A stretch of DNA of 64,000 nt from Bacteroidales bacterium (lineage in GTDB: Bacteria > Bacteroidota > Bacteroidia > Bacteroidales > UBA12077): contig JANQHE010000024.1 of assembly GCA_028282785.1 (NCBI GenBank), forward strand, positions 73,612 through 137,611, in the 5' to 3' direction. Positions 14,997 to 62,311 of the stretch are shown in pieces. Position 1 is the first letter of the stretch; each line of letters starts with the position of its first letter. Under the pieces are notes generated by a model. That model had not been told where the DNA came from. It saw nothing but the letters and a program-made list of their open reading frames with translations, and did no database searches. Position numbers and translations under genes: made by a program.

Positions 14997-15010
14997 TAAA
15001 AAATAGCAAC

Positions 15011-15217
15011 ATGAAAAAAATAATAACAATCTTATTAATGATCTCAACGATAGGGATACTGTCAACAGGTATTGCAATACCTGAAGGTGATAACCCGGAT
15101 ACAGCATTATCAGAATTGCATAGTATATTATCTCTTCTATTTAGCATTTGTCTTTTTATACATGTAAAAAAACATTTTAAATCATTCATTCATTCTTTTA
15201 AAATCTTAAAAAGATGA
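15011..15217 (+). CDS. small membrane protein, unknown function
   Basis: The ORF track begins at TTG 14990. ATG 15011 gives MKKIITILLMIS... with two hydrophobic helices. The stop overlaps the next start. Confidence 0.4.
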   Translation: MKKIITILLMISTIGILSTGIAIPEGDNPDTALSELHSILSLLFSICLFIHVKKHFKSFIHSFKILKR

Positions 15218-15660: not shown

Positions 15661-15926
15661 AAACAAAAAACGAACTTAAAGAAATGGATACCGAAATAAC
15701 GGATCTACCCATAATTGATTTGAGAAAATGTAGCGGGTGCAACAAATGTATAATTGCATGCGATCACAATGCTTTAGAATTAATTGATATTAATAAAGAG
15801 AGAAATAAACATGGTTTTTTCGCATGGAAAAAACTTAAAGCTGTTATAAAATATCCTATAAATTGCATTGGGTGTAAAGCTTGTTACTCAGTATGCAAGC
15901 ATAAAGCAATAAAATTTAAAAATTAA
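15651..15926 (+). CDS. 4Fe-4S dicluster ferredoxin-domain protein
   Basis: Two CxxCxxCxxxC-type motifs: CSGCNKCIIAC and CIGCKACYSVC. Confidence 0.8.
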   Translation: MDLKTKNELKEMDTEITDLPIIDLRKCSGCNKCIIACDHNALELIDINKERNKHGFFAWKKLKAVIKYPINCIGCKACYSVCKHKAIKFKN

Positions 15927-15937
15927 AATACGGAAAA

Positions 15938-16687: not shown

Positions 16688-16852
16688 AATTATAACCTGT
16701 ATTTACAAATTCGGGTTTTTATCGGAAAGAATATATATTATCGCAAGAAAACAAGGATTATAATTCAGAGTGGCAGTACATTTAAAAGTACTAAAATCAT
16801 CTTATAATTAGGATGGTATATTTAAAGGAAAAAAGTAGAAGTTAATCTGCAT

Positions 16853-17254
16853 TCAAACTACAATTAAATTCTTAAACGTATCATAACTAATAGGTAGGTT
16901 TAATAAATGATAAGCACCTTTCATGGTTGAACAAATTTTTCTGTTGGGCAATTCAAGACAGAAAATTTGTAAATAAGCAGTTTCGATTGGAGAATTTACT
17001 ATATAAACAACGCATTCCAAATTATCCAATTCACAATACTTATAGACTAACTCTAATAATTCTCTAAACATGGATTCTTTTAAATCAAACTTACAACCTC
17101 TTAAATCGACAATTTGATATCGTATTTTTGAGAAATTTTTATCTTCCCGAATTAATTTAGCTAGTTCGAATAATTCCTTAAAAGTTTTATACCCGGGATT
17201 AAAAATCGCAACTCCAAAATTTAAAACCGGGTATATTTTATATTCATAATCCAT
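16853..17254 (-). CDS. hypothetical protein (last gene of the MarR-ABC unit)
   Basis: 133-aa ORF with an ATG start, 36 nt downstream of the ABC gene. I recognise no family. Confidence 0.45.
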   Translation of the reverse strand: MDYEYKIYPVLNFGVAIFNPGYKTFKELFELAKLIREDKNFSKIRYQIVDLRGCKFDLKESMFRELLELVYKYCELDNLECVVYIVNSPIETAYLQIFCLELPNRKICSTMKGAYHLLNLPISYDTFKNLIVV

Positions 17255-17290
17255 GTAATCTCATTTAAACCTGTTCTTTGTAAATACTAT

Positions 17291-19039
17291 TTAATGGATG
17301 GCTACAGGTTTGTTCAATCTGATTTGATCTGTTTTTTCTTCAGAATACCATAAATTAAAATACAAACCTTTATTGAGTAATAATTCTTCGTGTTTCCCGC
17401 TTTCCATAATTTTACCATTGTTTAATACGATAATTTGGTCTGCATTTTTTATGGTTTTTAAATGATGAGCGATAACAATTACAGTTCTTTCTTGCACAAG
17501 ATTGGAAATAGCCATCTGTAAATTTCTTTCATTTATAGGATCAATATTACTTGTGGCTTCATCCAGAATAAGAATCGGAGCATCTTTGATCAAAGCCCTT
17601 GCAACGGATAAACGTTGTTTTTGGCCTCCCGATAAACCAGCGCCTCCTTCTCCTAACATGGTATCATATTGTTGAGGTAGTGTCATTATAAAATCATGGA
17701 TCATTGCTTTTTTTGCTGCTTGAATAACCTGTTGTTTTGTCGCTGATTTATTTCCTATTTTTATATTCTCATATATCGTGTCCGATAATAAAACCACGTT
17801 TTGCATAACAATGGAGATATTAGATAATAAACTATTATATTCTATATCTCTAAGTTCCGATCCTCCAATTTTGATGGTTCCATTATTAATATCCCAAAAT
17901 CGGAGTAAAAGATTTGTAATGGTTGATTTTCCGGAACCGGAAGGGCCAACCAAAGCAATCATTGATTTTTCAGGAATATTTATTGAAATATTGTTAAGAG
18001 AGAATCCATCATTCTCGTAAGAAAAACAAACTTCATTAAATTGGATGTCCGAACTTACAGGGAAACTTGATGTTCCTTCGTTTTTTACTTCCGGGGAGTC
18101 TTTTATTTTACAAATTCTTGCATAACTATCTCTGGCAGTAATGTATAAAAGCCAATGTTTATCTGCTTGATAGAAGGGTTTATAGAATTCAAGCCCAAGT
18201 ACAATAAACAAAAGAAAATGAAAGATCTCAATTTGATGTGTCCAGACTAACAATGCGCCTATGGAAATAATAAACAGATAGCTTAACTCTAAAAACATAA
18301 AATAACTTCCGGTTATTCTTGCGGTAATTTTTGCTGTTTTATAAGAACTCCCACTTAAATCATTAATAGAACTATTTAATTTATTTATAAACCCGGGATT
18401 TTCATAGAATGATTTTAGAACCGGGATTCCTTTTGTATATTCAACAAATAAACTTGCCATATCAGCCAATTTATTTTGACTTTTGGTATTTATTTTTTCT
18501 GTTTTTTGAGTACCCTTTATTAATATAAAAATCCCGAAAGGCAAGAATGCTATCATAGCTAATCCAAGTTTCCAATTAAAAATAAACAGTGCTGTTCCTA
18601 AAATTAACGAAGTAATTATATCTGCAGAAATTCTGGTCCATAAATGACCTACAATTCCCTCAATATTATTTACGTCCTTATGTATTATGGTACCTATTTC
18701 ACCGATCCGCTCTTTAGAAAAAAACTCAAGCGAGAATTTCTTTAATTTAAGCAACATATCTTTTCTAATTCTTTTAGATATTCTAAAACCTGCATAATGT
18801 TCAAATAAATCAGCTGTACAATCGCAAATAGCACGAAATATAATTAAGCCACCTATATAAAACCAATAAAAATTAAGTTGTGTGTTCACAGTCGAGCCAG
18901 GAGATATATTTTTTATTAGCTTTAGGATTATTAATACCAGGGCAACACCGGCAAGGCCTTTCAGTACGAATAGAAAACTTGCTGAAAACAAATATAATTT
19001 TTCTTTTGGCTGTATTTCTTTAAATATTTTGGTTTTCAT
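17291..19039 (-). CDS. ABC transporter permease/ATP-binding protein (exporter half)
   Basis: 6-TM domain. GPSGSGKST, LSGGQKQR, ILILDEATS, IAHHLKT. Confidence 0.9.
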   Translation of the reverse strand: MKTKIFKEIQPKEKLYLFSASFLFVLKGLAGVALVLIILKLIKNISPGSTVNTQLNFYWFYIGGLIIFRAICDCTADLFEHYAGFRISKRIRKDMLLKLKKFSLEFFSKERIGEIGTIIHKDVNNIEGIVGHLWTRISADIITSLILGTALFIFNWKLGLAMIAFLPFGIFILIKGTQKTEKINTKSQNKLADMASLFVEYTKGIPVLKSFYENPGFINKLNSSINDLSGSSYKTAKITARITGSYFMFLELSYLFIISIGALLVWTHQIEIFHFLLFIVLGLEFYKPFYQADKHWLLYITARDSYARICKIKDSPEVKNEGTSSFPVSSDIQFNEVCFSYENDGFSLNNISINIPEKSMIALVGPSGSGKSTITNLLLRFWDINNGTIKIGGSELRDIEYNSLLSNISIVMQNVVLLSDTIYENIKIGNKSATKQQVIQAAKKAMIHDFIMTLPQQYDTMLGEGGAGLSGGQKQRLSVARALIKDAPILILDEATSNIDPINERNLQMAISNLVQERTVIVIAHHLKTIKNADQIIVLNNGKIMESGKHEELLLNKGLYFNLWYSEEKTDQIRLNKPVAIH

Positions 19040-19089
19040 GATATATTAGATTTTGTAAAGTATTATGTTTTCCAATTTTATTTTGAGAT

Positions 19090-20841
19090 TTAGAAAACTG
19101 GTTTTGTTTCTTTTTTTATTGTCCATCTGTCTACTTCGTTTTGAGCACTAAACATTTCAACATATGTTTCAGATTCAGTAATTAGCTCATTATGCGTACC
19201 CTTTGCTAAGATCTCTCCATCTTCTAATAGTACTATTTGATCTGAATCAACTATGGTGTGCATGTTATGAGCAATAATTATTAATGTCCTGTTTTTTCTA
19301 AGCTCCCTGATCGCCTGATGTATTAAAAATTCATTATGGGGATCAATTGCTGATGTCGCTTCATCGAGTATAATAATTGGAGAATCTTTTAACATTACCC
19401 GGGCAATGGAAATGCGTTGTTTTTCTCCACCTGATAGCTTTGCTCCCCCTTCTCCCACAATGGTATCAAGGCCCTTAGGTAAAGATGTTATTAATGATGT
19501 AAGTTGTGCTTTCTTAATTACTTCAAATAGTTCTTGTTCAGTTGCATTTTTTTTACCTAAAGCGATATTTTCGCGAATCGAAGTATTAAATAAGAATACA
19601 TCCTGTTGAACTATTGATACGAGTGAGGTTAGATCCTCTTCTTTAATATTACTTATTTCCACATTGTTAATTGTAACAGAGCCATTATAGGACTGAACAA
19701 ATCCCAGAAGTATGTGAGCTAAAGTGGTTTTACCCGAACCGGAACTGCCTATTAAAGCTGTTGTGGTATGCTTTTTTATTTTAAGATTGACATTCTTAAG
19801 AACTTCTGTTTCTTCATAAGAATAGGAAAGATTTTTTATTTGGATCTCCCCGTTATTTATTTTAGCGGAATCTGTTTTTTTATTTTCGTTAACCGGTTTT
19901 TCCGAAAGAATGCTGTTTATCCTGCTTTTGGAAGTGTTAAAGGTCATTAATGAATGATGCATTCTCATTAACCTTGTTAAAGTAGTATTAAAAAAGATAG
20001 ACATAACCACGGATATTATGAAAATGTTCGTCGATATTAGCTCTTTAAATAATAAAGTCGAACCAACAATAATAGTTATAAATAATCCAACGTCTTGAAG
20101 AATAGCAAGTATTGAACCACCGTATGCTGAAATTGATACCGAGATTTTTCTGAGCCATTTTTCGTATACCTCCATTTTACCCAGCACTTGTTTAGTTTTC
20201 TTTTCACTCTTATTAAAGGCTTTAATTACGGTTATTGATGATATATATTCGATTATTTCTTCGTTTAGTTCTTTAGTGTCTTTAGCATATCTGTCGGAAA
20301 AAGGTTTAAGTACTTTATTAAATATTAAAAAGAATATAAAAATTAAAGGCAGGGATGAGATAATACATAATCCCAGGCGCCAGTCCAGCAATGTTACAAA
20401 AGTGAATATAAGTAAGGGAACTGCCGAAGACAATATAAGATCGGGCAAAGCATGCCCAACGTATAATTCTACTTGTTCAACATCATGATTAACTATATTT
20501 GATAGATCTCCAATCTTACGTTTCTTAAAAAATGAGAGTGGTAAAGAGCGCATATGTTTTATTAACCTGAGCCTTATATTAGCTAAAACCGAAAATGCAT
20601 TTTTATGCGAATGCGATATCGTAATCGAAGAGAATACAACTTTTATTGTTAATAACAAGAGAATAATTATTAACCTGCCAATGATAAACTCTTTGCTTCT
20701 CGCTTCAGAAACTAAATTTGCAAGTATTTGCATAACAAATAAAAAAGAAATATATCCTGCAGCAACACCAGATGCCGATATTATCCCGGAGCGTAATGCC
20801 TTGCGTTTCTCCTTTTTACTAAAAATTGATGTTTTATTCAT
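19090..20841 (-). CDS. ABC transporter permease/ATP-binding protein (exporter half)
   Basis: 6-TM domain. GSSGSGKTT, LSGGEKQR, IIILDEATS, IAHNMHT. Confidence 0.9.
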   Translation of the reverse strand: MNKTSIFSKKEKRKALRSGIISASGVAAGYISFLFVMQILANLVSEARSKEFIIGRLIIILLLLTIKVVFSSITISHSHKNAFSVLANIRLRLIKHMRSLPLSFFKKRKIGDLSNIVNHDVEQVELYVGHALPDLILSSAVPLLIFTFVTLLDWRLGLCIISSLPLIFIFFLIFNKVLKPFSDRYAKDTKELNEEIIEYISSITVIKAFNKSEKKTKQVLGKMEVYEKWLRKISVSISAYGGSILAILQDVGLFITIIVGSTLLFKELISTNIFIISVVMSIFFNTTLTRLMRMHHSLMTFNTSKSRINSILSEKPVNENKKTDSAKINNGEIQIKNLSYSYEETEVLKNVNLKIKKHTTTALIGSSGSGKTTLAHILLGFVQSYNGSVTINNVEISNIKEEDLTSLVSIVQQDVFLFNTSIRENIALGKKNATEQELFEVIKKAQLTSLITSLPKGLDTIVGEGGAKLSGGEKQRISIARVMLKDSPIIILDEATSAIDPHNEFLIHQAIRELRKNRTLIIIAHNMHTIVDSDQIVLLEDGEILAKGTHNELITESETYVEMFSAQNEVDRWTIKKETKPVF

Positions 20842-20856
20842 ACGTTATATTTTAGT

Positions 20857-20872
20857 GTATACACTGTATACG
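20857..20872. promoter_or_regulatory. candidate MarR operator (GTATACACTGTATACG)
   Basis: GTATAC..GTATAC motif 16 nt upstream of the ABC start codon. Related to the sites at 20952 and 21494. Confidence 0.4.
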
Positions 20873-20951
20873 TTTATGTTAAAAAAATTGATCTTTATAT
20901 TTTATTGCTAATCCTTTCAAAATAGTAAAGCTTACATTTGAATATCTATTT

Positions 20952-20970
20952 GCGTATATGGTATATACGC
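20952..20970. promoter_or_regulatory. candidate MarR operator (GCGTATAT-GGT-ATATACGC)
   Basis: Perfect 8-bp inverted arms around a 3-nt centre, between marR and the ABC genes. Confidence 0.45.
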
Positions 20971-21024
20971 TCCAAAGATTAAAAAAGCCTGATTAACAGG
21001 CGAACATTGTTTACGAAGCTTAGC

Positions 21025-21471
21025 TCAAAAGTGCCGTTCTACAAAGCGATTAGCTTTTTTCAAAAAAGCTTCGATTGTTTCAGTTTCTTTTTTATTAAGT
21101 TTATTTAAGTAATCGAACATTTCTTTATCCTTTTTTTGATGATATTTTCTATGGCCTGAAAAACAAATCTTTCCGGCTTCAGTTAAAGTAACCAAAATCC
21201 TGGATTGATTTTTAGGATCTGCTATTTTTTCAATCAATCCCTTTCTTTTTAAAACTTTCATTCTTTGTGATATGGCTCCTTTTGTAACACCCATTTCTCT
21301 GGCTATTTCAGAGATATGAATTCCATTCGTTCGGCCTATTATTTCTATAGTATGAATTTCACTTCGATACAATAAAATATTGTTACCATAATCAGTCTTA
21401 ACCTTGTTGGTTTGTGCAGCCTTATCTGTAAGGCTCATAAATAATTCTATAATTGGCCCAAAATCTTTCAT
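21025..21471 (-). CDS. MarR family transcriptional regulator
   Basis: ISEIAREMGVTKGAISQRMKVLKRKGLIEKIADPKNQSRILVTLTEAG is a classic MarR wHTH. The ORF track starts at TTG 21489. I prefer ATG 21471. Confidence 0.85.
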   Translation of the reverse strand: MKDFGPIIELFMSLTDKAAQTNKVKTDYGNNILLYRSEIHTIEIIGRTNGIHISEIAREMGVTKGAISQRMKVLKRKGLIEKIADPKNQSRILVTLTEAGKICFSGHRKYHQKKDKEMFDYLNKLNKKETETIEAFLKKANRFVERHF

Positions 21472-21493
21472 AACTATCAACAATTTCAATAAG

Positions 21494-21510
21494 CGTATAC
21501 ATTATATACG
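21494..21510. promoter_or_regulatory. candidate MarR autoregulatory operator (CGTATACATTATATACG)
   Basis: 6-bp inverted arms CGTATA/TATACG directly upstream of marR. Confidence 0.4.
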
Positions 21511-21700
21511 GTACAAATATAAAATTATTTGATTCAAAACAATAATTATTTGGATTAAATAATTATTGAGATTTCGGGTGTTAATACATCATTGTTGTAA
21601 AATACAGAAAATAGCAAGTAAACATGTTTTTAATTAATTTGTTGTAAATATCTTATTACCATTTTTTGAAGTACTTGAATAGTAAAAGTGGAAGTGAAAA

Positions 21701-21776
21701 CGTGCAAAATACCTTATACCGGCTGGATTTTATAACTGTAATTCCATTCTCATTTTTCTGGACCTTCCTAAAATCA
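21701..21776. repeat. intergenic repeat module R2, copy a (CGTGCAAAAT...TTCCTAAAATCA)
   Basis: Shares CGTGCAAAAT and TTCCTAAAATCA blocks with 22787..22830. Confidence 0.5.
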
Positions 21777-21990
21777 AATAGGAAATAATTTAATTGTATC
21801 AGTTAAGTTATAGATTCCATATTGTATTCCTTTACATATAATAAAAAAGTTACAGGATAACGAAAAGCCTTTCACCTCATTTAACAAGGCCTCTACACAA
21901 AAATTCCCGTTGCCCGATATCATATTTAGGGATTAAGCTGTATTGAAATTGACTTCGGAAATTGATAACTTTGAAATAAACAAAATCATC

Positions 21991-22614
21991 ATGAAACAAA
22001 TCGTTATAAGCCTGGTAATGTTATTTATTTTGACAAATTGTCAAGAAAATAAAACTGTAAGACAAGAAAAAACAGTCGAAGATCATATCAATATTGAATT
22101 AGCCAAAAACATAAAGAATGAGACCATACTTTTAGGATTAAAGTTTGGAATGGGAGGCGAAGAAGTTCATAATTATTTTAAAGATCTGGTAAACCATAAA
22201 AAGCTTCTTTTGTTACCACATGAGTATCTTTCAGACAAGGGCAAAATATATATATACCCCTTTGAATTTGGCGATGAAAATCCTGCATTACAAAATGTGA
22301 TGGGAACGTTTAAAACCTATTATATAAAAGATAAGCTTTACAAACTAAGAATCTCGGCAGAATCAGAAAAGGACACACCCGTTAATCTATTAAAATCAAA
22401 GTTTAAGGAAGTTTATATTCAAAAATACGGGGAGAATTATATCACGCGGGAAAGCATTTATAATAACAGTGAAGTTTACGTTTGGATCAATGGCAATACG
22501 ATGATTGAAATAAGTGAAGGACTTAGCAATAATATTTTGATCATTTATTCGGATTTAATTGCATTAAAAGATAGCAAAGAAAAACCTGCTGAGAAGTTAA
22601 TGAGGGAGATATAA
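21991..22614 (+). CDS. hypothetical lipoprotein
   Basis: ATG 21991 gives MKQIVISLVMLFILTNC (lipobox-like). The ORF track start at 21943 is TTG. Confidence 0.5.
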   Translation: MKQIVISLVMLFILTNCQENKTVRQEKTVEDHINIELAKNIKNETILLGLKFGMGGEEVHNYFKDLVNHKKLLLLPHEYLSDKGKIYIYPFEFGDENPALQNVMGTFKTYYIKDKLYKLRISAESEKDTPVNLLKSKFKEVYIQKYGENYITRESIYNNSEVYVWINGNTMIEISEGLSNNILIIYSDLIALKDSKEKPAEKLMREI

Positions 22615-52950: not shown

Positions 52951-53195
52951 ATATTCCTTTTTTAATAAGCATATTCTATGGATTTGCTATGTAACAAATA
53001 TAATCAAAAAGCATATAATTAATGCCTTTGAAGTTTGTAAGCATTATTTATATGAACCGCTATATTAATTATTTTGAAATGAAGCCCATTTGAACTTCAT
53101 GAACAGCCTTTCGTTTAAAGTTTTCATTATAAATTATTGATCCTGGCATAAGTTTACTTTTTGTATAAACCTATTTCAGGACAAGACACATTACT

Positions 53196-53228
53196 CTCCC
53201 TTTTTTAAAAGGGGGATACAGGGGGATT
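53196..53228. repeat. repeat module M1, copy A (CTCCCTTTTTTAAAAGGGGG-n5-GGGGGATT)
   Basis: Same module at 54725..54754 with a 2-nt spacer. Internally palindromic (CCCTTTT/AAAAGGG). Confidence 0.7.
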
Positions 53229-53344
53229 AAAAGGGTTGAAAAATATCCCTCACACGGGTTTATAATGCGTGCAACAAGAGAAAGAAAGGAAAAAGAATTT
53301 GTGTCAACTAAGCGAAGCGATCTCATGAGCAAAGCGAATAACAC

Positions 53345-53397
53345 AAAAAAAGTATAGTTAAAAGACTTAGACTGCATACGAAATCAAATTCGACGTA
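53345..53397. repeat. repeat module M2, copy A (53 nt)
   Basis: AAAAAAAGTATAGTTAAAAGACTTAGACTGCATACGAAATCAAATTCGACGTA. 51/53 identical to 54662..54714, same strand. Confidence 0.85.
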
Positions 53398-53490
53398 GGT
53401 TTTAATAAATTTATCAGTGGCTGGTTCATTGCTTTTTTTCTTTGTGTGGTAGGCAAAGAAAAAGAAAGAATTTAATACCATAGAAAATTT

Positions 53491-53529
53491 TGATTATTCC
53501 CACTGGTCATGAAAATAGTTCTTTGTTTC
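53491..53529. repeat. repeat module M3, copy A
   Basis: TGATTATTCCCACTGGTCATGAAAATAGTTCTTTGTTTC compared with 54581..54619: 36/39 identical, same strand. Confidence 0.8.
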
Positions 53530-53621
53530 ATTCCTTTTAGGAAGGAAAAAAAATAAGATTAAACACTCCATACCATGTCTATTTAGCCATTCTTAGAGCA
53601 GAAAAAAACTTCTTTACTTTA

Positions 53622-54332
53622 TTAATGCAAAATAATACTTCCCCAACCAGAATAGTCAAAATCAATAATATTTGGGTTCCAGCCATGGCTTACATTTTCT
53701 ATGGGCGAATCGGCTTCTATTTTTACCGGCCAATAATTTTCATGGTGGTCAATCAAAATATTTGAAATTAAAGCTTCTTTGGCAAGAGCTTTTTTTATGG
53801 GGTTTATTCCTAAACTATTTAATGAAATTGCCATCTCATTATGCGTTTCCTCTGCCATAGGTACCGTGCTGGCTACCCATCCATTTTCCATCATATAGGT
53901 GTTGATAGCTTCCTTTAACTCACTTTCACTTGCATTACGAACAAAACTACCTCTCATTTCCCAATGATACTTTTTTGTACAAACCCAAAGCTTATGAGCT
54001 TCGTCATACTCATACACAGCCAACCCTAATGAATAGGATGCATGAAAAACATACATTCTGTTGTTTATAATGAAATGTACATTTCCAATAATAGAATTTC
54101 TGGCAACGTATAAATTGTATTCATCATACTTTAAGTAAATAGAGGTGGTATCAGTTAATTTTAGTTCATAAGCATCGTTCCATTCATTTTCTGATATCTT
54201 TCCATCAATAACCGGAACACTGCCTTTTTTAATTTTTATTACAGAACTGTCTGAAAATTCAACACGTGCATTTGCCAAATTAATGGTAAGGCAATAAATT
54301 ACTATTACAAAAAGGAGTATTATTTTTCTCAT
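53622..54332 (-). CDS. secreted protein with CBM9/DOMON-like N-terminal signature
   Basis: ATG 54332 gives MRKIILLFVIVIYCLTINLANA (signal peptide). VPVIDGKISENEWNDAYEL resembles the carbohydrate-binding family 9-like opening motif. Confidence 0.45.
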   Translation of the reverse strand: MRKIILLFVIVIYCLTINLANARVEFSDSSVIKIKKGSVPVIDGKISENEWNDAYELKLTDTTSIYLKYDEYNLYVARNSIIGNVHFIINNRMYVFHASYSLGLAVYEYDEAHKLWVCTKKYHWEMRGSFVRNASESELKEAINTYMMENGWVASTVPMAEETHNEMAISLNSLGINPIKKALAKEALISNILIDHHENYWPVKIEADSPIENVSHGWNPNIIDFDYSGWGSIILH

Positions 54333-54551
54333 AGTCAAAACATTTAGTTTATAAATTTATACTGCATTTAATACGTAAAGTAAACATTATTTATTGTTTT
54401 TTAGAAATATTTCCCCTTTGTGTGTGGGGCACCATATCTCCAGGCCCTGAAAAAGGTAGAAAGAAACCTGCATTTATTCCTTTCTGCCATGATCCCTATA
54501 GTTATTGGGACGCTTTGCTACATTGAGAAATTTGGGTGAAAAACAAGCTTG

Positions 54552-54568
54552 CCTGCCGGACGGGCAGG
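54552..54568. repeat. CCTGCC-n5-GGCAGG hairpin repeat
   Basis: CCTGCCGGACGGGCAGG has a 6-bp stem. Flanks are similar to the other copies (GCCTGCC...GGCAGGATT). Confidence 0.55.
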
Positions 54569-54580
54569 ATTCATTTCGGT

Positions 54581-54619
54581 TGATTATTCCCTCCGGTCAT
54601 GAGAATAGTTCTTTGTTTC
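54581..54619. repeat. repeat module M3, copy B
   Basis: See 53491..53529. Confidence 0.8.
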
Positions 54620-54650
54620 TTTCTCATCAAGAAGAAAGAAACAAAGAACT
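54607..54650. repeat. perfect 18-bp stem / 8-nt loop hairpin
   Basis: AGTTCTTTGTTTCTTTCT-CATCAAGA-AGAAAGAAACAAAGAACT. The left arm is part of module M3 copy B. Confidence 0.8.
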
Positions 54651-54661
54651 TAATTAAGGAC

Positions 54662-54714
54662 AAAAAAAGTATAGTTAAAAGACCTAGACTGCATACGAAA
54701 CCAAATTCGACGTA
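54662..54714. repeat. repeat module M2, copy B
   Basis: See 53345..53397. Confidence 0.85.
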
Positions 54715-54724
54715 AAAAAAACTA

Positions 54725-54754
54725 CTCCCTTTTTTAAAAGGGGGCCGGGGGATT
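54725..54754. repeat. repeat module M1, copy B
   Basis: See 53196..53228. Confidence 0.7.
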
Positions 54755-54988: not shown

Positions 54989-55004
54989 CCTGCCTATCGG
55001 CAGG
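54989..55004. repeat. CCTGCC-n4-GGCAGG hairpin repeat
   Basis: CCTGCCTATCGGCAGG has a 6-bp stem. Confidence 0.55.
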
Positions 55005-55045
55005 GTTTGCGAAGGAGACCCCCACTAAGGCATCCTGCTTAAGTG

Positions 55046-55078
55046 GCAGAAGAACGTATACTTTTGGCTTCGGAATGG
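55046..55078. repeat. shared upstream element R3, copy 1 (GCAGAAGAACGTATACTTTTGGCTTCGGAATGG)
   Basis: Resembles 60004..60038 (AAGAACGTA identical, then about 14/20). Contains a Bacteroidetes -7-like TACTTTTG. Confidence 0.5.
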
Positions 55079-56103
55079 GGTTAATTAATATTAACAAATA
55101 CCTTAATTCTTATAATATGCTTAATAATCCGGCTCTTGATATTGCGATAGGTTTAGTCTTTATCTATGCCATTTATAGTTTGCTTGCGACAACATTAACG
55201 GAATTAATAGCAACCCTTATCGGCTTAAGAGGAAAAAACCTAAGAAAAGGAATCAAACGAATGTTAGATGATGATTCGATATCAATTGAATCATCATCTA
55301 AATTAAGTGAAATCTTTATTGGAAGACCAGAAATAAAATTTTTAGGAAAAGGGAAGAATATAAGAGGAAAAGAAAAATTTCCATCCTATATTAAATCCAA
55401 AACATTTGCTAAAGGATTAATAAACAGCCTAGAAGATGTTCACAACTTCAATAAAGATTTAAATAAATTGAAAGAGAGTCTTAAGGAAAAAGAAACTCCT
55501 ACAAATATCTTTATTGCAAACCTAATAGATGAAGCCAATTCTAATATAGAAAGGTTTAAATCACTGGCGGAGGATTGGTTTAATGAAACCATGGACCGAG
55601 TTGGTGGATGGTATAGAAAACATATTAGTCTTTTAACCTTCATAACAGGTTTCCTAATCGCATTAACATTAAATGTAGATACTCTTTCCATAAGTAAAAA
55701 GCTGAGTCAGGACAAAGAATCCAGGTTGGCGTTAGTTGAAGCAGCATCAGGATATGTGAGCAGTTTTGAAGCTAATGATTCTTTAAGTAAAGACGATTAT
55801 GAAAAATTTGAAATTCTAAACAATAGGATTGATTCACTTTTAGTTCAGGATGAAATAATAGGTACAATCATAGATTGGTATCCTCCTGAAAATTTTGGAT
55901 TGATTTGCGAAACTAAAGAGATTCTAGCAGAATCATGGGCTTTTATATTAAAATACATTTTTGGTTGTTTGATTACGGCTATAGCTCTTTCATTAGGTTC
56001 TTCCTTTTGGTTTGATCTATTGAATAAATTGATAAAACTAAGGGGAACTGGCACTAAGGAAAAGACCAATTTAAAAGTATCAAAAAGCAAACCCGTTGGA
56101 TAG
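55075..56103 (+). CDS. 3-TM membrane protein of unknown function (first gene of the trio)
   Basis: TM helices near aa 20-52, 184-201 and 289-317, with a charged coiled-coil-like middle and a C-terminal GSSFWFDLLNKLIKLRGTG. ATG 55075 lies inside repeat R3, so ATG 55117 (MLNNPALD...) may be the real start. Confidence 0.6.
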   Translation: MGLININKYLNSYNMLNNPALDIAIGLVFIYAIYSLLATTLTELIATLIGLRGKNLRKGIKRMLDDDSISIESSSKLSEIFIGRPEIKFLGKGKNIRGKEKFPSYIKSKTFAKGLINSLEDVHNFNKDLNKLKESLKEKETPTNIFIANLIDEANSNIERFKSLAEDWFNETMDRVGGWYRKHISLLTFITGFLIALTLNVDTLSISKKLSQDKESRLALVEAASGYVSSFEANDSLSKDDYEKFEILNNRIDSLLVQDEIIGTIIDWYPPENFGLICETKEILAESWAFILKYIFGCLITAIALSLGSSFWFDLLNKLIKLRGTGTKEKTNLKVSKSKPVG

Positions 56104-56137
56104 TCACCCATTTAATTAATAACCAAAAAAACCTCAG

Positions 56138-57256
56138 ATGAAAGTAAAATCAGATAAAGAAGTACATATCAGGGAAGGAACTCCTTATCAAAACAATAAT
56201 AATAAAAAAGGAGTACTCTATACCGGCTTTGAAATTGAAGTAGTTGAACAGGTTGAAGGACAAAATATCGATGACAATAACATATGGTTTAAAGACAGAA
56301 ATGGAGACTATTATTGGAGTGGTGGGTTTGAAGGTTATTCAAAAAAAACTGATCTAATAAAAAATAAATCATTTCAAGAGTTTATTGAAGGGCGTTTTAA
56401 TCGAAGTACTAAAAAGCTTCTGGGGTCAATTAATTATAATGAGTTATTAAATATTAGTGATAGCATTAAAAAAACCAAAGGTGTAGATACGAAGGTTGCA
56501 ATTTTAGATTATCCAATAAAAAAGTGGGGTGAGATTTTTAACTCAAGAATATTTGATGATGATTTTGATATCAAAAGAATCGGTGGATCTCATGGCACTT
56601 TATTAGCAAGCATTATTGGAGCTAATCAAAGAGCTAATATTGGTATAACTGGAATAGCTCCACTTTGCAATCTTATACAACTTCCAATATTTTATAGTTA
56701 TAAAGGTAAAAACATAGATGAAGATCAAATTCTAACCTTTTTAAATAAACATTTTAAAAACGAAAAAATAATTATTAATGCAAGTTTGGCATATGTAGAA
56801 AATGAAATTACTGATAACATTATATCTTTCTACAATAACTTTGCTAAAAAACATATAATTGTTGCAAGTGCCGGAGAAAATAAGCAGTTATTAACTGCAC
56901 ATCAGTTGCAGTTTCCATCAAGATTGACAGATATAATTTCTGTTGGAGTGATCAATCAAGAATTTTTAGAAGAAAATGAAAATCCAATATTTAGTAATGA
57001 ACTTGATATAATTATTAAAGACTTTACCTACATTGGAATTACGCACAAAATGAATAATTTTTATGACGTTATTCAACGAGATAGTGCAGCAACAGCCATC
57101 GTTTCAGGTGTCATTAGTCTTTTACTTTCTTCATTAAATGAAGATACAAATTCTTTGAATAAAAAAAATATACTTAAAAAACTCCTTGAACATTGTATTT
57201 CCATAAAAGAAGCAAAAAATAACCACCAGTTAACACTAATAAATCCCAAATTATGA
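56138..57256 (+). CDS. SH3b-like domain fused to a divergent S8 (subtilisin-like) serine peptidase, no signal peptide
   Basis: N-terminal VHIREGTPY...IWFKDRNGDYYWSGGF (SH3b-like). Candidate triad D124 (VAILDYP), H152 (GGSHGTLLASIIGAN) and S316 (RDSAATAIVSGV), with subtilisin-like spacing. ASAGEN stands at the oxyanion position. Confidence 0.65.
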   Translation: MKVKSDKEVHIREGTPYQNNNNKKGVLYTGFEIEVVEQVEGQNIDDNNIWFKDRNGDYYWSGGFEGYSKKTDLIKNKSFQEFIEGRFNRSTKKLLGSINYNELLNISDSIKKTKGVDTKVAILDYPIKKWGEIFNSRIFDDDFDIKRIGGSHGTLLASIIGANQRANIGITGIAPLCNLIQLPIFYSYKGKNIDEDQILTFLNKHFKNEKIIINASLAYVENEITDNIISFYNNFAKKHIIVASAGENKQLLTAHQLQFPSRLTDIISVGVINQEFLEENENPIFSNELDIIIKDFTYIGITHKMNNFYDVIQRDSAATAIVSGVISLLLSSLNEDTNSLNKKNILKKLLEHCISIKEAKNNHQLTLINPKL

Positions 57257-59451
57257 AAAAAGTACTTTACCTTATCGCGTTTTTTTCAATTTTATCATCA
57301 AATTGTTTAGGCCAATTTGCACATAACGATGCTTTTAAAATAGTTGATGATGATTTTCATTTTTATGATAAAAATAATAACCTAAAAATAACGCCTGATG
57401 ATGATGCATTAAAAATATTAGGAAATTATGTTAATAAAAAAAATATGACCAGGGCTGATATTCAGAATGCATTCAGTAAAAATCCCTTTTTTCAAATAGA
57501 AACAATTACAAAAGATCCACAAGATAATATTAACCTTGATGAAATTGATGTAAAAAACCTTGCGGGTTTAGACGTTACCTCACTTTCACAAGGACTATCT
57601 CAATTTATGATAGAACGTGCAAAGGAAGAGTTGAATGTTGCCTTCTTCGAAAGGTTTAAAAAATTCACTGAAGAGAATGATGAAATAAAATTACTATTTC
57701 CAATAACAACCCAACGATTAAGTAATATGTTGTCATTTCATTATTCGCAAATGTTAACACAGCTGAGAGAGGCATTCTATGAAGATTTAAATAATTTACC
57801 TGATAATGTCATAAAACTTCTTGAGGAAGGTGGGAATTTTAAAGAGTTAAATAAATTACCTGAGGTAGTTATAGCCATAAATAGCATTAAACTTATTAGG
57901 CAAATAGAGTATCTTTCACCGCCAGACCTAATAAAGCAGCTACCTCAATTATATTCAAAAATCGATGCTAGCGATTTTAGCACTGCCCAAAAACAAAATC
58001 TTGAAAATTTTAAAACTTCGGTTGAACTTGCTGTAGTTTTTTCTGAATCGTTAACTCATTTATCAGATGATAGATATTGGGTATCTTCTTCTGATTTTTA
58101 TAGTAATGTGTTAAAAAATGATACTACAACATTAATATTTCTTGGATTGGTATATCAACAAATCGAAAGAGAATCCTTAAAAATAAATGATACATTAATA
58201 ACTGAACGTATAAAAAACGATAAAGATATTCAATGGTACAAAAATAGAATTAAAGAATTTATCTATTTAATCAATAAGATAGATAATACGGTATATGAAA
58301 TAAACCAGGCAAAGAAAGAAAATATAAAGGTAGATAATAATCAGGTCTATTCTTACATCAATACGTTTCTTGAAATAGCATCATTCGGGAATGAATTTAT
58401 CATGTATTATAATTCCAATAAAACAGCCTATAATGATTACCTTGAATATGCAGGATATGCTAATGAAATATATAAATATACTTATCAACAGCAATATTCT
58501 TCTGCAGTAATGTCTTCGGTTGAGTTGTTTAAAGCTATTTTACCTAACATTAAAAAAACTGCTGATATTCCTGATAATGAATTTGATATTATCAATACCG
58601 CGAAGTACGTTACCGGTTATATAAAATCAGACGAATTTAATATTTTACTGAAGAAAGAAAAAAGGCAAATATGCAGAGTAAAGCGCGATGTTAAAAGAAA
58701 GATAAGAAAAGAAAAACAGTATTATATAAAAACTGAACGGGCAAAGATTCCTCCTACTAGCTCTAGAGCTGAATTGAGAAAATCTTTTATAGAAAATTAT
58801 CCTGAAGAAGATGTGAAAAAACTTATACAAGATTACGCTGTTGTAGAGCAGAATGAGCTAAAATGGTTAGAAGATTTAGTAAAATACGGCAACTTTATGG
58901 CTGGGCTGGTTGATGCGGATACGCCGGAAGAAGCAAAAAACTTAATTCAGTCTGTTGCTTTACCCTCAGGGAGTACTACTATTAAAAAGAATTCAAACTT
59001 TAACGTAAGTATTAATGGATATCTTGGTGCTAGTTACAGGTTTGATTATGATTCAAAAGCAGAAATAGCATGGAATGCGCAATGGGCGGTTTCTGCTCCA
59101 ATTGGAATATCTTTAAGCACAGGTTTCGGAAAAGGTGGGTCCTTATCACTTACAGGCGTTTTAATTGATGTTGGAGCAATTGTAGATTACCAGTTATCCA
59201 ATGATAGTACTTATATCAATAGTAAAATAACCTTTGGCAACTTATTTTCTCCCGGTGGGTATATTGTTTACGGAATGGCATGGGATTTTCCTATATCAAT
59301 TGGAGTAGGAGCCCAATACGGGCCTGGATTAACCTCCATTGATTCTGGCAATAATACAGTTGTAAATTCTCCGAACTGGAGGTTTGGTGCATTTATTTCA
59401 GTTGATATTCCATTCTTCAATATTTACAATAAACCAAAAAGGAAATTTTGA
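57253..59451 (+). CDS. large exported protein of unknown function with beta-barrel-like C-terminus
   Basis: ATGA overlap with the peptidase gene. Signal peptide MKKVLYLIAFFSILSSNCLGQ. Helical middle with the basic patch KKEKRQICRVKRDVKRKIRKEK. The last approximately 170 aa are Gly/Ser/aromatic-rich alternating strands ending FFNIY. Confidence 0.6.
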   Translation: MKKVLYLIAFFSILSSNCLGQFAHNDAFKIVDDDFHFYDKNNNLKITPDDDALKILGNYVNKKNMTRADIQNAFSKNPFFQIETITKDPQDNINLDEIDVKNLAGLDVTSLSQGLSQFMIERAKEELNVAFFERFKKFTEENDEIKLLFPITTQRLSNMLSFHYSQMLTQLREAFYEDLNNLPDNVIKLLEEGGNFKELNKLPEVVIAINSIKLIRQIEYLSPPDLIKQLPQLYSKIDASDFSTAQKQNLENFKTSVELAVVFSESLTHLSDDRYWVSSSDFYSNVLKNDTTTLIFLGLVYQQIERESLKINDTLITERIKNDKDIQWYKNRIKEFIYLINKIDNTVYEINQAKKENIKVDNNQVYSYINTFLEIASFGNEFIMYYNSNKTAYNDYLEYAGYANEIYKYTYQQQYSSAVMSSVELFKAILPNIKKTADIPDNEFDIINTAKYVTGYIKSDEFNILLKKEKRQICRVKRDVKRKIRKEKQYYIKTERAKIPPTSSRAELRKSFIENYPEEDVKKLIQDYAVVEQNELKWLEDLVKYGNFMAGLVDADTPEEAKNLIQSVALPSGSTTIKKNSNFNVSINGYLGASYRFDYDSKAEIAWNAQWAVSAPIGISLSTGFGKGGSLSLTGVLIDVGAIVDYQLSNDSTYINSKITFGNLFSPGGYIVYGMAWDFPISIGVGAQYGPGLTSIDSGNNTVVNSPNWRFGAFISVDIPFFNIYNKPKRKF

Positions 59452-59606
59452 CCATATAAATTGACTGCTTTATACATTGCAGGCATAATGTCCGTGCTAT
59501 ATTATGTAAGCCACATTTTTAAATTCATCCCCCTAACCACTTTCTCCAAGGGGGAAAGATATTTTCCCAATACGACAGAGAATTTGTAAAAAGAGGGGTA
59601 GGCCAT

Positions 59607-59623
59607 GCAAAATTGCGGGCCAT
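59607..59623. repeat. exact 17-mer GCAAAATTGCGGGCCAT (repeat R2, copy c)
   Basis: Identical to 22790..22806. The flanks are also similar. Confidence 0.7.
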
Positions 59624-59725
59624 GCGCCTGCATGAATTGACAATTATTTGAAATAGCAATAAAGGGGTTTATCCTACTTTATTAGTTATTTCAATGATTG
59701 GCAAGAGTGGGGTGAAGCATTCTTG

Positions 59726-59740
59726 CCTGCTGCAAGCAGG
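59726..59740. repeat. CCTGCT-gca-AGCAGG hairpin repeat
   Basis: 6-bp stem. Flank GCCTGC...GCAGGATTTTGC is like the other copies. Confidence 0.5.
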
Positions 59741-60003
59741 ATTTTGCAAAAGACTTTTTTGCTACTTTTTTGGTCTCTCAAAAAAGTATGAAGAAACATG
59801 CCAACTTCCTTAACCCACCCCAAAAACCTCCATTTCTTTAAAATAGCAAAACCTTTATTTAAAACCATTATCACAATACCGGACAATAACGTCTTTTATA
59901 TTGTAAACCAAACACTTGGTAATTTAAAATATTATTTTAATTTAACAAAATTAGTCCGCTGAAGACATGGCAGAGGAGGGCACTTACCAACTGCTTCTAA
60001 TAA

Positions 60004-60038
60004 GCAGTTAAGAACGTACATTTTGAACTTCGAAATGG
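60004..60038. repeat. shared upstream element R3, copy 2
   Basis: GCAGTTAAGAACGTACATTTTGAACTTCGAAATGG. Here the embedded ATG opens only a 4-codon ORF. Confidence 0.5.
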
Positions 60039-60218: not shown

Positions 60219-60542
60219 ATGAAAACAAGAATCAAAATTATTTTAACGGCGTTTTTATTTATTTTTGTTATGACTTCATTTTTATATGCACAAAATCAAA
60301 AGGAGTCAACTAAAGAAAGATATGGACTTGAACCCGTTGAATTAATTAAAAAAATTAAGATGAAAATTCTTAAATCCGAACCTGCAACTATAGAATGCGA
60401 CCATTATTCTGTGGTCATCAAATGTCAATTTACTTGTTGCTATTGTGGAACACTATTAGAAGCAATAGGTGGTTACGGAAATGCAAGTAACCCTAAAGGA
60501 GATTGCCCTTCATGTGGTTCTGATATTTCAGGGTGCAATTGA
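60219..60542 (+). CDS. small secreted cysteine-rich protein
   Basis: 107 aa. Signal peptide (..SFLYA-QN). 8 Cys in the last 49 aa (ECDH..KCQFTCCYCG...GDCPSCGSDISGCN). Confidence 0.55.
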   Translation: MKTRIKIILTAFLFIFVMTSFLYAQNQKESTKERYGLEPVELIKKIKMKILKSEPATIECDHYSVVIKCQFTCCYCGTLLEAIGGYGNASNPKGDCPSCGSDISGCN

Positions 60543-60664: not shown

Positions 60665-62311
60665 ATGTCTAAACATTCAGAAATCAAGTTTGGAAGAATA
60701 AAGTTTTTTACAGTAAATACTATGTTAACAATGATTATTGTATTATTGTTTCTTTTTATTTGCACTAATAACATTTATACTCATCCGCACCCTGATCGGT
60801 TCAATTTAAAAAATGAACAGGATGTTATAAAAAATATGGAAGCTTCCCTTCCTGTAATATCATTGAAGGAAGGGAAGGCATTTATAAAAGGGGAAGTGTA
60901 TGGATATAATCCTGTTTCAAACAGCAGCGTTAGAATAGCATACAACAACCCAATAATGAATGAACCCGAAGCATTTGTTGTCGAGATTTCCAGAAATGGT
61001 AAGTTTTTTATGGAGGTGCCAATTCTTTCGAATGCTACATGCCTTTTTATTTCTGATTATTACAAAGAATATATTTTATTATCAACTGGCGATACTTGTT
61101 ATATATATATAGATGCTAAAAAAATTAGGGAGATAAATGAGTTTGACCCTAGAAAAAGAGGCAATATAGATAACCAATATGTCCGTTTTAGCGGAGCTTT
61201 CGCGGAAATAAATAATGAATTGAATTATTTACGTTTTTGGTCAAATAGTATTAATCTTTTTAGCTATAAAAATGAATATAAAAATGTAGCTCAATACAAA
61301 GCATATATACTATCTACATTAGAAAAATCATTAAAGGAATTCCTTCACGCAAACATATCAAAACCGACAAAAGAATTAATTACAATAAACCTCCAACAGC
61401 AAGCGATACGTTGCTTGCTAAATAATAATAATTTACTGGAAACCCATTTCGATAACGGAGATTTATCAATACCTGCTGTTGACATAGGCTATTTTTCATT
61501 TTTAGAAGAAATGAATATAAATTCCCTCTATTCTTTTTACGGACGTTTCTATTCTAATATAATTAATGAATGTCAGCAAATAGAACATTATATTATGCCT
61601 TTAAGAGAGCTAATAAAAAAAAAGGGTATGCCCAAGAAAGCATTGGTTTACGAAGATATAAAAAGACAGAAAAATTATTTAGTTCGGATTTTAAAGGAAA
61701 ATAATGGGCCTGCATTCGATTTATTGGAAGTGTTAAATTTTACGTCAAAGATAAAACAAGAAATGACTTTAGATGAATGGGAAATTGAGAATTTAATGCA
61801 GTTAAAAGAGCTGGTATATTATAATTATGTAATAAGAAAAAACGAATTGTTATCATCAAATTTAAAAGACCTTAGAAAAAATTCTACTTCGATTATTTTT
61901 GATGTTTCAGCTGAAAAAAAAGACAATTATTTTGAAGACATATTGTCTTCATATGAAGGGGATATTATCATGGTTAATTATTGGTCTATGGGATGCCAAG
62001 CTTGCCATATTGCAATAGAAAATATTGAACCATTAAAAATGAAATATAAAAATAGGAAAGTGGTTTTTATTTATTTAACGGATGATAGTTTTTTATACCC
62101 AAGTTGGGAGAATAAAGCGGTTCAGATTGAAGGGATTCACTATAGGCTAAATAAAAAGCAAATAGATTATATCCTTTCTAAGTATAAGATGATGAACTCA
62201 ACGCCAAGTTTCCTAGTCTTTGATAAAAAAGGAGAGTGCATATTTAATCAAAAAGGATATTCAGAAAATGCGGTAAAGGATATTTTTGATACTATGGATA
62301 AAGAGTTATAA
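60665..62311 (+). CDS. TlpA-like thioredoxin-fold thiol-disulfide oxidoreductase with a large N-terminal domain
   Basis: N-terminal anchor/lipoprotein-like segment (LLFLFICTNN). C-terminal thioredoxin fold IIMVNYWSMGCQACH...TPSFLVFDKKGE. Confidence 0.7.
   Translation: MSKHSEIKFGRIKFFTVNTMLTMIIVLLFLFICTNNIYTHPHPDRFNLKNEQDVIKNMEASLPVISLKEGKAFIKGEVYGYNPVSNSSVRIAYNNPIMNEPEAFVVEISRNGKFFMEVPILSNATCLFISDYYKEYILLSTGDTCYIYIDAKKIREINEFDPRKRGNIDNQYVRFSGAFAEINNELNYLRFWSNSINLFSYKNEYKNVAQYKAYILSTLEKSLKEFLHANISKPTKELITINLQQQAIRCLLNNNNLLETHFDNGDLSIPAVDIGYFSFLEEMNINSLYSFYGRFYSNIINECQQIEHYIMPLRELIKKKGMPKKALVYEDIKRQKNYLVRILKENNGPAFDLLEVLNFTSKIKQEMTLDEWEIENLMQLKELVYYNYVIRKNELLSSNLKDLRKNSTSIIFDVSAEKKDNYFEDILSSYEGDIIMVNYWSMGCQACHIAIENIEPLKMKYKNRKVVFIYLTDDSFLYPSWENKAVQIEGIHYRLNKKQIDYILSKYKMMNSTPSFLVFDKKGECIFNQKGYSENAVKDIFDTMDKEL

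Follow-up and report, generated by a model that had tools for sequence, protein, structure and literature searches.

In the lysis cassette of phage lambda, the order S-R-Rz places a gene for an inner-membrane protein before one for an enzyme and one for an outer-membrane protein, and class I holins lie in the membrane with the N-terminus outside, the C-terminus inside and a basic tail. Cellular derivatives of phage lysis cassettes have been described as type 10 secretion systems (T10SS), e.g., ChiWXYZ of Serratia and the LC of Yersinia entomophaga (PMC10847048, PMC9527704). Here we describe a cassette of three genes, g1, g2 and g3, in a 64,000-nt stretch of the Bacteroidales contig JANQHE010000024.1 (the window; AT-rich, with about 32% GC), which encode a membrane protein, a peptidase of the S8 family lacking an export signal and a large exported protein, respectively. 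Our preferred explanation, to which we assign a probability of about 40%, is that this cassette represents the S8 subtype of a modular, non-phage system, in which, by analogy with a lysis cassette, g1 serves as dock and gate for an enzyme that degrades the envelope.

A co-inherited triad

The three open reading frames (ORFs) lie on the + strand at 55075-56103 (g1), 56138-57256 (g2, 372 aa) and 57253-59451 (g3, 732 aa). Direct reading of the sequence bears out the tight coupling for which they had been singled out: the 3' end of g1 reads ...AAA CCC GTT GGA TAG, 34 nt then separate this TAG from the ATG of g2, and the stop codon of g2 and the start codon of g3 share an ATGA overlap, the junction being TTATGAAA. 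Only the first start codon needs to be moved. The homologs of g1 all begin at the position of its Met15, and the ATG at 55075 chosen by the ORF caller sits in a conserved non-coding element; hence, the true start is most likely at 55117, which makes g1 (55117-56103) a protein of 328 aa and lengthens the spacer upstream of it to 778 nt from the 736 originally given.

Relatives of the three proteins were recovered in very different numbers, namely, 38 for g3 at 90% clustering among 5.8 billion proteins, 885 for g1, and 12 for g2 in a word-limited search; the matches to all three are co-located on the same contigs. Judged by its homologs, the window stems from a marine Bacteroidota genome near Marinilabiliales/Bacteroidales. 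Genes for g1, an S8 peptidase and g3 follow one another in the same order at no fewer than 14 loci from four classes of Bacteroidota (Bacteroidia, Cytophagia, Flavobacteriia and Chitinophagia). The triad is found in a TARA metagenome-assembled genome (MAG; locus L089, the closest relative), where identity is 92-97%, as well as in one further contig, in a Draconibacterium MAG, in Chryseosolibacter indicus (whose g3 is only 28% identical) and in 10 of the 80 species-representative genomes that were retrieved with a g1 profile; the junctions are tight or overlapping throughout. Among the sampled loci, g3 is present wherever the S8 peptidase carries the SH3-like domain discussed below (11/11) and nowhere else, and it never accompanies a non-protease partner, so that the co-occurrence presumed by the sequence-only reading is borne out. 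The flanks of the triad, on the other hand, differ at every locus and include SusC/D, ABC transporters, hemerythrins and restriction-modification (R-M) systems, among others. Since the genes are conserved together while their surroundings change, they are neither a chance adjacency nor core genes in a fixed housekeeping context; the three genes constitute a real, co-inherited cassette.

The product of g2 matches Peptidase_S8 (PF00082) over residues 134-352 (E = 3.9e-16; 59.6 bits against a cut-off of 21.8), and the Pfam match together with the homolog alignment places the catalytic domain at 56537-57193 (+). Remote matches to structures of subtilisin Carlsberg were also obtained (1.8e-6). The triad of Asp124 (codon at 56507-56509), His152 (56591-56593) and Ser316 (57083-57085; all +) is invariant among 20 aligned homologs, and by these sequence criteria g2 is a bona fide S8 peptidase. 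Neither an N-terminal hydrophobic segment nor a signal peptide was found in it, in keeping with its first description as a signal-less peptidase, and it has no match to the I9 propeptide. The oxyanion-hole Asn of the AAGN motif is replaced by Glu in the window protein (SAGEN), and the homologs have Glu, Gln or Asn at this position; the replacement of this Asn by Glu in the window and by Gln in several relatives, in conjunction with the intact triad, hints at altered catalysis or regulation.

N-terminal to the peptidase is a domain of about 65 residues (residues 1-65; 56138-56332, +), delimited by alignment and profile searches, in which K2, R12, W50, W60 and G62 are conserved. The window protein gave no Pfam SH3 match at E <= 1 and a PDB sequence search with the domain gave no match, whereas one homolog (L027) matches SH3_5 weakly (E = 0.0017, below threshold) and the profile of the domain matches the SH3-repeat regions of phage-type CHAP/M23/amidase lysins (1e-12 to 1e-5; weakest matches). 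As the label depends on the latter two lines of evidence, the SH3b identity proposed at the outset is probable but not proven, and we refer to the domain as SH3-like.

The third protein, g3 (57253-59451, +), begins with a signal peptide (57253-57312, +) that is predicted to be cleaved before Gln21, a residue nearly invariant among its homologs. A Gln following the cleavage site suits processing by signal peptidase I in Bacteroidota. In the AlphaFold2 (AF2) model, with a mean predicted local distance difference test score (pLDDT) of 72.9, a helical domain spanning residues ~112-568 (~57586-58956, +) is followed by a C-terminal beta-barrel of about eight strands that ends in Phe (residues 581-728; 58993-59436, +), which agrees with the earlier view of an exported, barrel-tailed protein. 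The barrel shows weak structural matches only, to OmpA-TM, Ail and OprG. Small outer-membrane barrels of about eight strands have both of their ends in the periplasm; therefore, going by the model, the helical domain should be periplasmic and g3 an outer-membrane-anchored protein. A type V autotransporter was considered and set aside, as g3 has about eight rather than 12 strands and its N-terminal domain is all-helical instead of a beta-helical passenger. Likewise, g3 was rejected as a spanin: it combines a cleavable signal peptide with a C-terminal barrel, has no inner-membrane anchor and shows no homology to spanins, leaving operon position as the only analogy.

The statement that the first and third proteins belong to no recognizable family held up against Pfam, NCBIfam, PADLOC and PHROG, none of which gave a match to g1 or g3. 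PDB sequence-profile searches returned only noise for both, and Foldseek comparisons with PDB and BFVD yielded nothing better than E > 0.03 with TM-scores < 0.2 for the two proteins (E > 0.7 for g1).

The g1 family and its enzymes

Three hydrophobic segments were computed in g1, at residues 5-37, 169-190 and 273-302, which correspond to the three transmembrane (TM) segments already suspected (TM1, 55129-55227; TM2, 55621-55686; TM3, 55933-56022; all +). Across 82 g1 sequences, the count of Lys plus Arg rises from 0 at the N-terminus to 4.5 after TM1 and 6.2 in the tail. This charge distribution predicts an inner-membrane protein with its N-terminus out and its C-terminus in, whose basic tail lies at the cytoplasmic side; the soluble parts would then be a cytoplasmic helical loop of ~130 aa and a periplasmic loop of ~80 aa. 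In the window, the tail terminates in ...KPVG. The AF2 model is all-helical and confident, with a pLDDT of 87.6 and a predicted TM-score (pTM) of 0.81.

The family is widespread. It was confirmed by tblastn in at least 584 species of Bacteroidota, Ignavibacteria, Gemmatimonadota, Acidobacteriota, Verrucomicrobiota, Nitrospirota, Proteobacteria, Actinomycetota and Spirochaetota, and is carried by 12 plasmids. By contrast, tblastn found it in 0 of 50,697 phage genomes, and a single locus outside any lysis module was found among the 2.9 million viral contigs of IMG/VR; a phage origin of g1 was rejected on these grounds. At the viral-contig locus (L095, 5986-8665), g1 comes after two ParB-like/DNA-methylase genes and before a gene for a 513-aa lipoprotein-like protein; the region is high in GC and prophage-like, and g1 resembles cargo there rather than a lysis gene.

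A hydrolase partner is encoded beside g1 at about 30 of the 80 sampled loci (38%), typically by the gene directly after it. The partners with an SH3-like domain are S8 peptidases, GH46-like enzymes (five loci), DUF900 alpha/beta-hydrolases (two loci), trypsin-like proteases and YdjC proteins. At 11 further loci, the partner is a patatin, a Tle1-like protein (matching PF09994 at 6.6e-72), a GDSL or alpha/beta-hydrolase, a PG_binding_1 protein with GH75, a muramidase with PG_binding_1, an amidohydrolase or a papain-like enzyme. The inspected plasmids carry a patatin with g1 in Rhizobium, and g1 with an Amidase_2/PG_binding_1 enzyme in Hymenobacter and Caballeronia. No signal peptide was found in the tightly coupled partners; several of them nevertheless carry domains that bind and cleave peptidoglycan, and these can act only once they are across the inner membrane. 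Different effector types are mixed over the g1 tree, with partners swapped between close g1 relatives. Response regulators adjoin g1 at 11 of the 80 loci, and g1 is often found on its own; such solo genes being common, g1 must have, or retain, a function of its own. Two arrangements depart from the usual pairing. On a plasmid of Hymenobacter canadensis (L087, 5001-9991), g1 precedes a leaderless Amidase_2/PG_binding_1 gene, behind which lies a gene for a 983-aa protein with trypsin-like and S8 parts, which is a different way to join a wall hydrolase and proteases with g1; at another locus (L035, 7001-10399), two divergent g1 paralogs flank one SH3-GH46-like gene, after which comes a small lipoprotein-like gene.

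The feature that unites otherwise unrelated partners is the N-terminal domain. The first ~65 residues of the window g2 recur in GH46-like, DUF900, trypsin-like and YdjC partners, with a recurring pattern of K2, R12 and W50 and then W-S/G-G-G. According to a local profile, the domain is present at 20 of 82 loci, and in each case it opens the product of the gene directly behind g1, the intergenic gap being -53 to +5 nt. Exhaustive searching of 1.84 billion representatives yielded 175 clusters with the SH3-like domain; of the 143 that were newly retrieved, 108 are clusters of S8 enzymes, and others have trypsin-like, YdjC or PG_binding_1 domains. The presence of the domain is in turn correlated with the end of g1. 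A terminal Gly, mostly as [P/A/R]-V-G, is seen on g1 at 19 of the 20 loci with an SH3-type partner versus 9 of 61 others, and g1 ends in [VI]G at 12/20 versus 2/61 (Fisher p = 1e-7, with kinship among loci ignored). Further, the C-terminus of g1 is fused at one locus (L033) to a trypsin-like domain with the motifs SCWHVL...GDSGA. At another (L094), the protein in front of an SH3-PG_binding_1 enzyme is an unrelated multi-TM protein of 185 aa, and it, too, ends in ...SPIG. From the terminal-Gly correlation, the C-terminal fusion and the predicted topology of the tail, we infer that the cytoplasmic tail of g1 serves as the docking site of the SH3-like domain.

A third gene is characteristic of the protease subtypes. 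The modules with an SH3-trypsin enzyme (L027, L092 and L093) are also triads, and the product of their third gene is exported, with a signal-peptidase site of the A-Q type and a C-terminus that is beta-rich and aromatic; no homolog of g3 is detectable in these triads, the third protein itself included. Among the sampled loci, no conserved third gene was found in the glycosidase and lipase subtypes. Thus, the protease subtypes seem to require an outer-membrane partner, and the confinement of the third exported protein to them fits g3 being the dedicated target or platform of the protease.

Taking these findings together, we propose that g1 sits in the inner membrane with its N-terminus out and its C-terminus in, and that its basic tail, ending in Gly (PVG in the window), might hold the SH3-like domain of the enzyme at the cytoplasmic face. 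Upon a cue, g1 would oligomerise or open in a holin-like fashion, allowing the enzyme to reach the periplasm and damage the envelope. As the peptidoglycan-cutting partners carry no export signals, the simplest role for a constant membrane partner is the control of periplasmic access. The protease subtypes would additionally need a third, exported and outer-membrane-anchored protein, here g3, which is most likely the dedicated periplasmic target or platform of the protease; its cleavage might compromise the outer membrane, a role analogous to, and not homologous with, that of a spanin. The outcome would be regulated self-lysis or a local breaching of the envelope, and the sporadic, island-like distribution may point to a role in conflict, such as abortive infection or altruistic release, rather than in housekeeping. 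A stronger version of this proposal, which we consider rather doubtful, would make g1 a phylum-spanning inner-membrane gate or translocator that delivers folded leaderless hydrolases by SH3-like/x-V-G recognition, with g3 as a protease-activated breaker of the outer membrane; this would amount to a new way of releasing proteins or of cell suicide, with no relation to holins, Sec, Tat or the numbered secretion systems.

Genomic surroundings

In the two closest relatives, the cassette adjoins genes for type I R-M, GmrSD, PLD, PIN or KAP-NTPase proteins, which fits an accessory or conflict-type element. In L089, a defence island comprising helix-turn-helix, PLD-like, type I R-M subunit, GmrSD and DUF433/PIN genes (12609-22199) comes right after the cassette; the window has a different gene set at the same position, which marks the site behind g3 as a variable hotspot. 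Elsewhere, L027 adjoins GmrSD-like genes and L042 a caspase-like gene, and in flank scans of 18 loci, defence genes are sporadic and most flanks unremarkable; no families of the type VI secretion system (T6SS) or of other secretion systems were found in the scanned flanks. A comparison with PADLOC-DB v2 found no known defence system and no match to g1 or g3, with g2 attracting a generic subtilase match only (1.5e-4); no system model thus matches the cassette. The suggestion that it is a conflict or abortive-infection module therefore holds in part: the variable flanks and the defence genes beside the two closest relatives favor it, while such proximity is seen at a minority of the other loci and PADLOC recognizes no system.

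The cassette had also been pictured as bracketed by repeat-laden spacers, which is correct in a more restricted sense. In a BLAST comparison of the window with itself, the upstream spacer showed significant dispersed repeats only at 54580-54744, and these pair with 53193-53551; the copies, 82-96% identical, flank a gene for a 238-aa protein (53622-54338, - strand) and not the cassette. The downstream spacer is not repeated elsewhere in the 64-kb window. A mobile cassette bounded by long repeats was rejected accordingly, since the long repeats flank the 238-aa gene instead. The product of that gene is exported and matches no family; the segment containing the gene and its repeats (53208-54659) is absent from L089 and resembles a small insertion/deletion hotspot beside the cassette.

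Two shorter elements do flank the cassette. A 28-nt direct repeat is present just 5' of g1 (AGAACGTATACTTTTGGCTTCGGAATGG; 55051-55078, +) and again at 60011-60038 (+), 181 nt 5' of the next gene, which starts at 60219. This element (AGAACGTAYAYTTTKRRCTTCGRAATGG) has exactly two copies in the 64 kb, both on the + strand, and is kept upstream of g1 in the related contigs L089, L090 and L091. It holds a Bacteroidota -7-like TAnnTTTG motif, with a CTGC..GCAG hairpin preceding it; because of this motif, it probably serves the cassette as promoter or 5' element and not as an attachment site. Its occurrence before g1 and before the next operon suggests a shared promoter or regulator site and, possibly, co-regulation. 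A sigma-70 promoter scan did no better than on shuffled sequence, the sigma-70 model not being appropriate for Bacteroidota. The other element, of ~280 nt, lies on both sides of the cassette in L089, where its upstream copies (6770-7029 and 7139-7238) are 87-90% identical; the window, by comparison with L089, has one copy, at 59513-59793. It is non-coding and may be a repeat resembling miniature inverted-repeat transposable elements or a structured-RNA repeat; Rfam gave no match to it and, at the gathering threshold, 0 matches in the window.

A terminator-like hairpin, a pattern match only, lies 89 nt past the stop codon of g3 (59540-59558, +), and short GC-rich hairpins of the form (C)TGCCTGC..GCAGG(G) stand in the AT-rich spacers near the cassette (54548-54568, 54989-55008 and 59724-59741). 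The operon that follows the second 28-nt copy encodes a small, exported, Cys-rich protein of 107 aa (60219-60542; ...CDHYSVVIKCQFTCCYCG...CPSCGSDISGCN) and a protein of 548 aa with a C-terminal thioredoxin-like domain (60665-62311; PF13905, 7e-7). Possibly, the former is a disulfide-rich peptide and the latter its redox partner; the pair is absent at that position in the closest relative. Transporter and stress genes surround the cassette in the window.

Alternative readings and known systems

Several observations weigh against a gated, lysis-cassette-like module. Peptidoglycan is not normally a substrate of S8 and trypsin-like proteases, and lipases and proteases could act from the cytoplasm instead. 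With 328 aa and large soluble domains, g1 is unlike the small holins, and its homologs are missing from the 50,697 phage genomes and present in one of the 2.9 million viral contigs. No hydrolase adjoins more than half of the sampled g1 genes, close relatives of the window's g1 (Saccharicrinis and Marinilabilia) among them. For the window cassette itself, Glu in place of the oxyanion Asn may reduce the activity of the peptidase, and the SH3 assignment of its N-terminus is weak. Finally, defence genes are close by at only ~4-5 of 22 loci.

The rival that fares best, though we think it unlikely, keeps the enzymes in the cytoplasm. The cassette would be an intracellular toxin module anchored in the membrane, along the lines of toxin-antitoxin or abortive-infection systems, with g1 as the sensor, anchor or antitoxin-like sequestering partner; once activated, the enzymes would destroy the inner leaflet (lipases), cytoplasmic proteins (S8 and trypsin-like proteases) or cell wall precursors (amidases and glycosidases), and g3 would be a separate envelope sensor or a target. 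The missing signal peptides of the partners, the predicted cytoplasmic position of the g1 tail and of its trypsin-like fusion domain, the defence islands adjoining the two closest relatives and the GmrSD-like genes adjoining L027 are all consistent with this, and effectors of the patatin type in CBASS do work from the cytoplasm. What speaks against such a module is the recurrence of PG_binding_1, SH3b-type, muramidase and Amidase_2 domains, typical of enzymes acting on the assembled sacculus. It also leaves the exported outer-membrane protein of the protease subtypes unexplained, and PADLOC offers no match in its support.

Somewhat further down in plausibility is ordinary envelope maintenance, whereby g1 would be a housekeeping membrane protein, such as a stress or turnover factor, that recruits or regulates autolysins, lipases and proteases in the remodelling of cell wall and membrane, and g3 a structural envelope protein processed by the S8 peptidase. 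The breadth of the g1 family (at least 584 species), its frequent occurrence alone or next to response regulators (11/80 loci) and the transporters and stress genes around the window cassette would suit such a role. Its patchy and non-syntenic distribution, the swapping of partners between close g1 relatives, the plasmid-borne members and the mere 38 clusters of g3 among 5.8 billion proteins would not; moreover, housekeeping periplasmic hydrolases normally have signal peptides.

We find it less plausible again that the cassette is a dedicated route across both membranes for effectors directed at other cells or substrates, with g1 as an inner-membrane translocon that reads the SH3-like domain as a targeting signal, g3 as the outer-membrane exit or surface anchor of the S8 peptidase, and the Tle1-like, patatin, muramidase and amidase partners as antibacterial toxins. 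As in polymorphic toxins, an N-terminal domain that stays the same is joined to C-terminal enzymes that vary; the enzyme classes correspond to those of T6SS effectors (including the PF09994 Tle1-like protein at 6.6e-72), and the AF2 model of g3 has an outer-membrane barrel. Nevertheless, a barrel of about eight strands is too small to pass a folded 40-kDa enzyme, the non-protease subtypes have no outer-membrane component, no conserved immunity gene follows the effectors, and the module lacks an ATPase or other energy source, with flanks devoid of secretion genes.

Least probable of all is a protease-activated, gasdermin-like pore, in which the S8 peptidase would act as the trigger by cleaving g1 or g3 to give a membrane-permeabilising fragment: the obligate pairing of the S8 peptidase with g3, the analogous third gene beside trypsin-like partners and the alpha-pore-forming toxins among the top Foldseek matches of g1 (at noise level, E > 1, and not significant) might suggest it, but g1 proteins also have glycosidases, amidases and lipases as partners, none of which can activate by proteolysis, the predicted compartments of g2 and g3 differ unless g2 is exported first, and no homology to known pore-formers or to gasdermins (no Pfam, PADLOC or fold match for g1 or g3) was found, so that a bacterial gasdermin-protease module was rejected.

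These considerations also bear on what the sequence-only reading made of the cassette. Its idea of a protease-triggered module finds no support as it stands, in that the protease is only one of many interchangeable hydrolases joined to the g1 family, whereas the envelope-remodelling or secretion device that it named as the other option is closer to what the partner repertoire suggests.

No description of the g1 family, of g3 or of the pairing with SH3-type hydrolases was found in the literature, the coverage of which was incomplete, and the relatives of g1 and g3 as well as the plasmid members are all named "hypothetical protein" in the databases. The system touches on the question of how signal-less wall hydrolases and lipases get to the envelope outside phage lysis. 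To our knowledge, the few examples of type 10 secretion all employ phage-derived holins; here, a non-phage family from hundreds of species, with a confidently predicted fold that has no known relative, is genomically tied to leaderless envelope enzymes. If g1 is a translocator, it would be categorically new. Should the module cause regulated self-lysis, it would be a candidate for a new abortive-infection or public-goods release system, and should the enzymes be exported without cell death, a new secretion route; either outcome would give names to several large hypothetical families (g1, g3 and the SH3-like hydrolases). The shared adaptor domain, the terminal-Gly motif and the natural fusion make the idea directly testable.

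Among described systems, polymorphic toxins and T6SS effectors share with the g1 modules a constant N-terminal domain, here the SH3-like one, joined to swappable enzymes (S8, trypsin-like, GH46-like, DUF900, YdjC and PG_binding_1), and the repertoires of T6SS effectors (Tle, Tae/Tge) have their counterparts in the Tle1-like PF09994, patatin, amidase, muramidase and protease partners. They differ in that the g1 modules have no adjacent immunity gene, VgrG, PAAR, Hcp or other secretion genes; the only conserved downstream genes are those for the g3-type proteins of the protease subtypes. The constant partner is, in addition, a 3-TM protein unlike known adaptors or chaperones. Kiwa, Zorya, the TM effectors of CBASS/Pycsar and IetAS, which has an S8 component, resemble the cassette as sporadic, island-like units combining a membrane component with a degradative enzyme; the cassette, however, has no nucleotide-signalling or NTPase component, and PADLOC matches neither g1 nor g3. 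The Lipocone superfamily, which includes two-gene systems with patatin or outer-membrane barrels, was considered and rejected, as no supporting text on an SH3 or 3-TM family was found in its description (PMC12419801) and g1 has no Pfam match to the member families. Like the intracellular subtilisins, g2 has the S8 fold and the D-H-S triad and is without a signal peptide or a classical I9 propeptide; it differs from them in the added N-terminal SH3-like domain, in the Glu or Gln that many members of its family have at the oxyanion Asn position, and in its obligate linkage to g1 and g3.

Phage-type lysis cassettes and T10SS also resemble the cassette. The order of membrane protein, leaderless envelope hydrolase and outer-membrane-linked protein is common to them, as are the three TM segments of g1, its predicted N-out/C-in topology and its basic C-terminal tail. 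At the level of the family, the leaderless muralytic neighbor expected of a holin is present (Amidase_2+PG_binding_1, muramidase+PG_binding_1, PG_binding_1+GH75 and GH46-like), the first two being classic endolysin architectures, and as with T10SS, the modules are chromosomal or plasmid-borne and lie outside prophages. There are differences as well. In the window, the enzyme is an S8 protease and not muralytic, and the family partners include lipases; g3 is a beta-barrel protein, where spanins are a lipoprotein/inner-membrane pair; and g1, with 328 aa, ~130-aa cytoplasmic and ~80-aa periplasmic helical domains and no solved relative, showed no homology to the holin families of PHROG, Pfam or NCBIfam. 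Failing on homology, size and phage distribution, it is therefore an analogue of holins and not a member. The SH3-like domain, too, is N-terminal here and correlated with a terminal-Gly motif on the membrane partner, a relationship that we do not know from any holin-endolysin pair. Overall, the cassette looks like a new variation on the theme of the lysis cassette and the release of leaderless hydrolases, assembled from unrelated parts.

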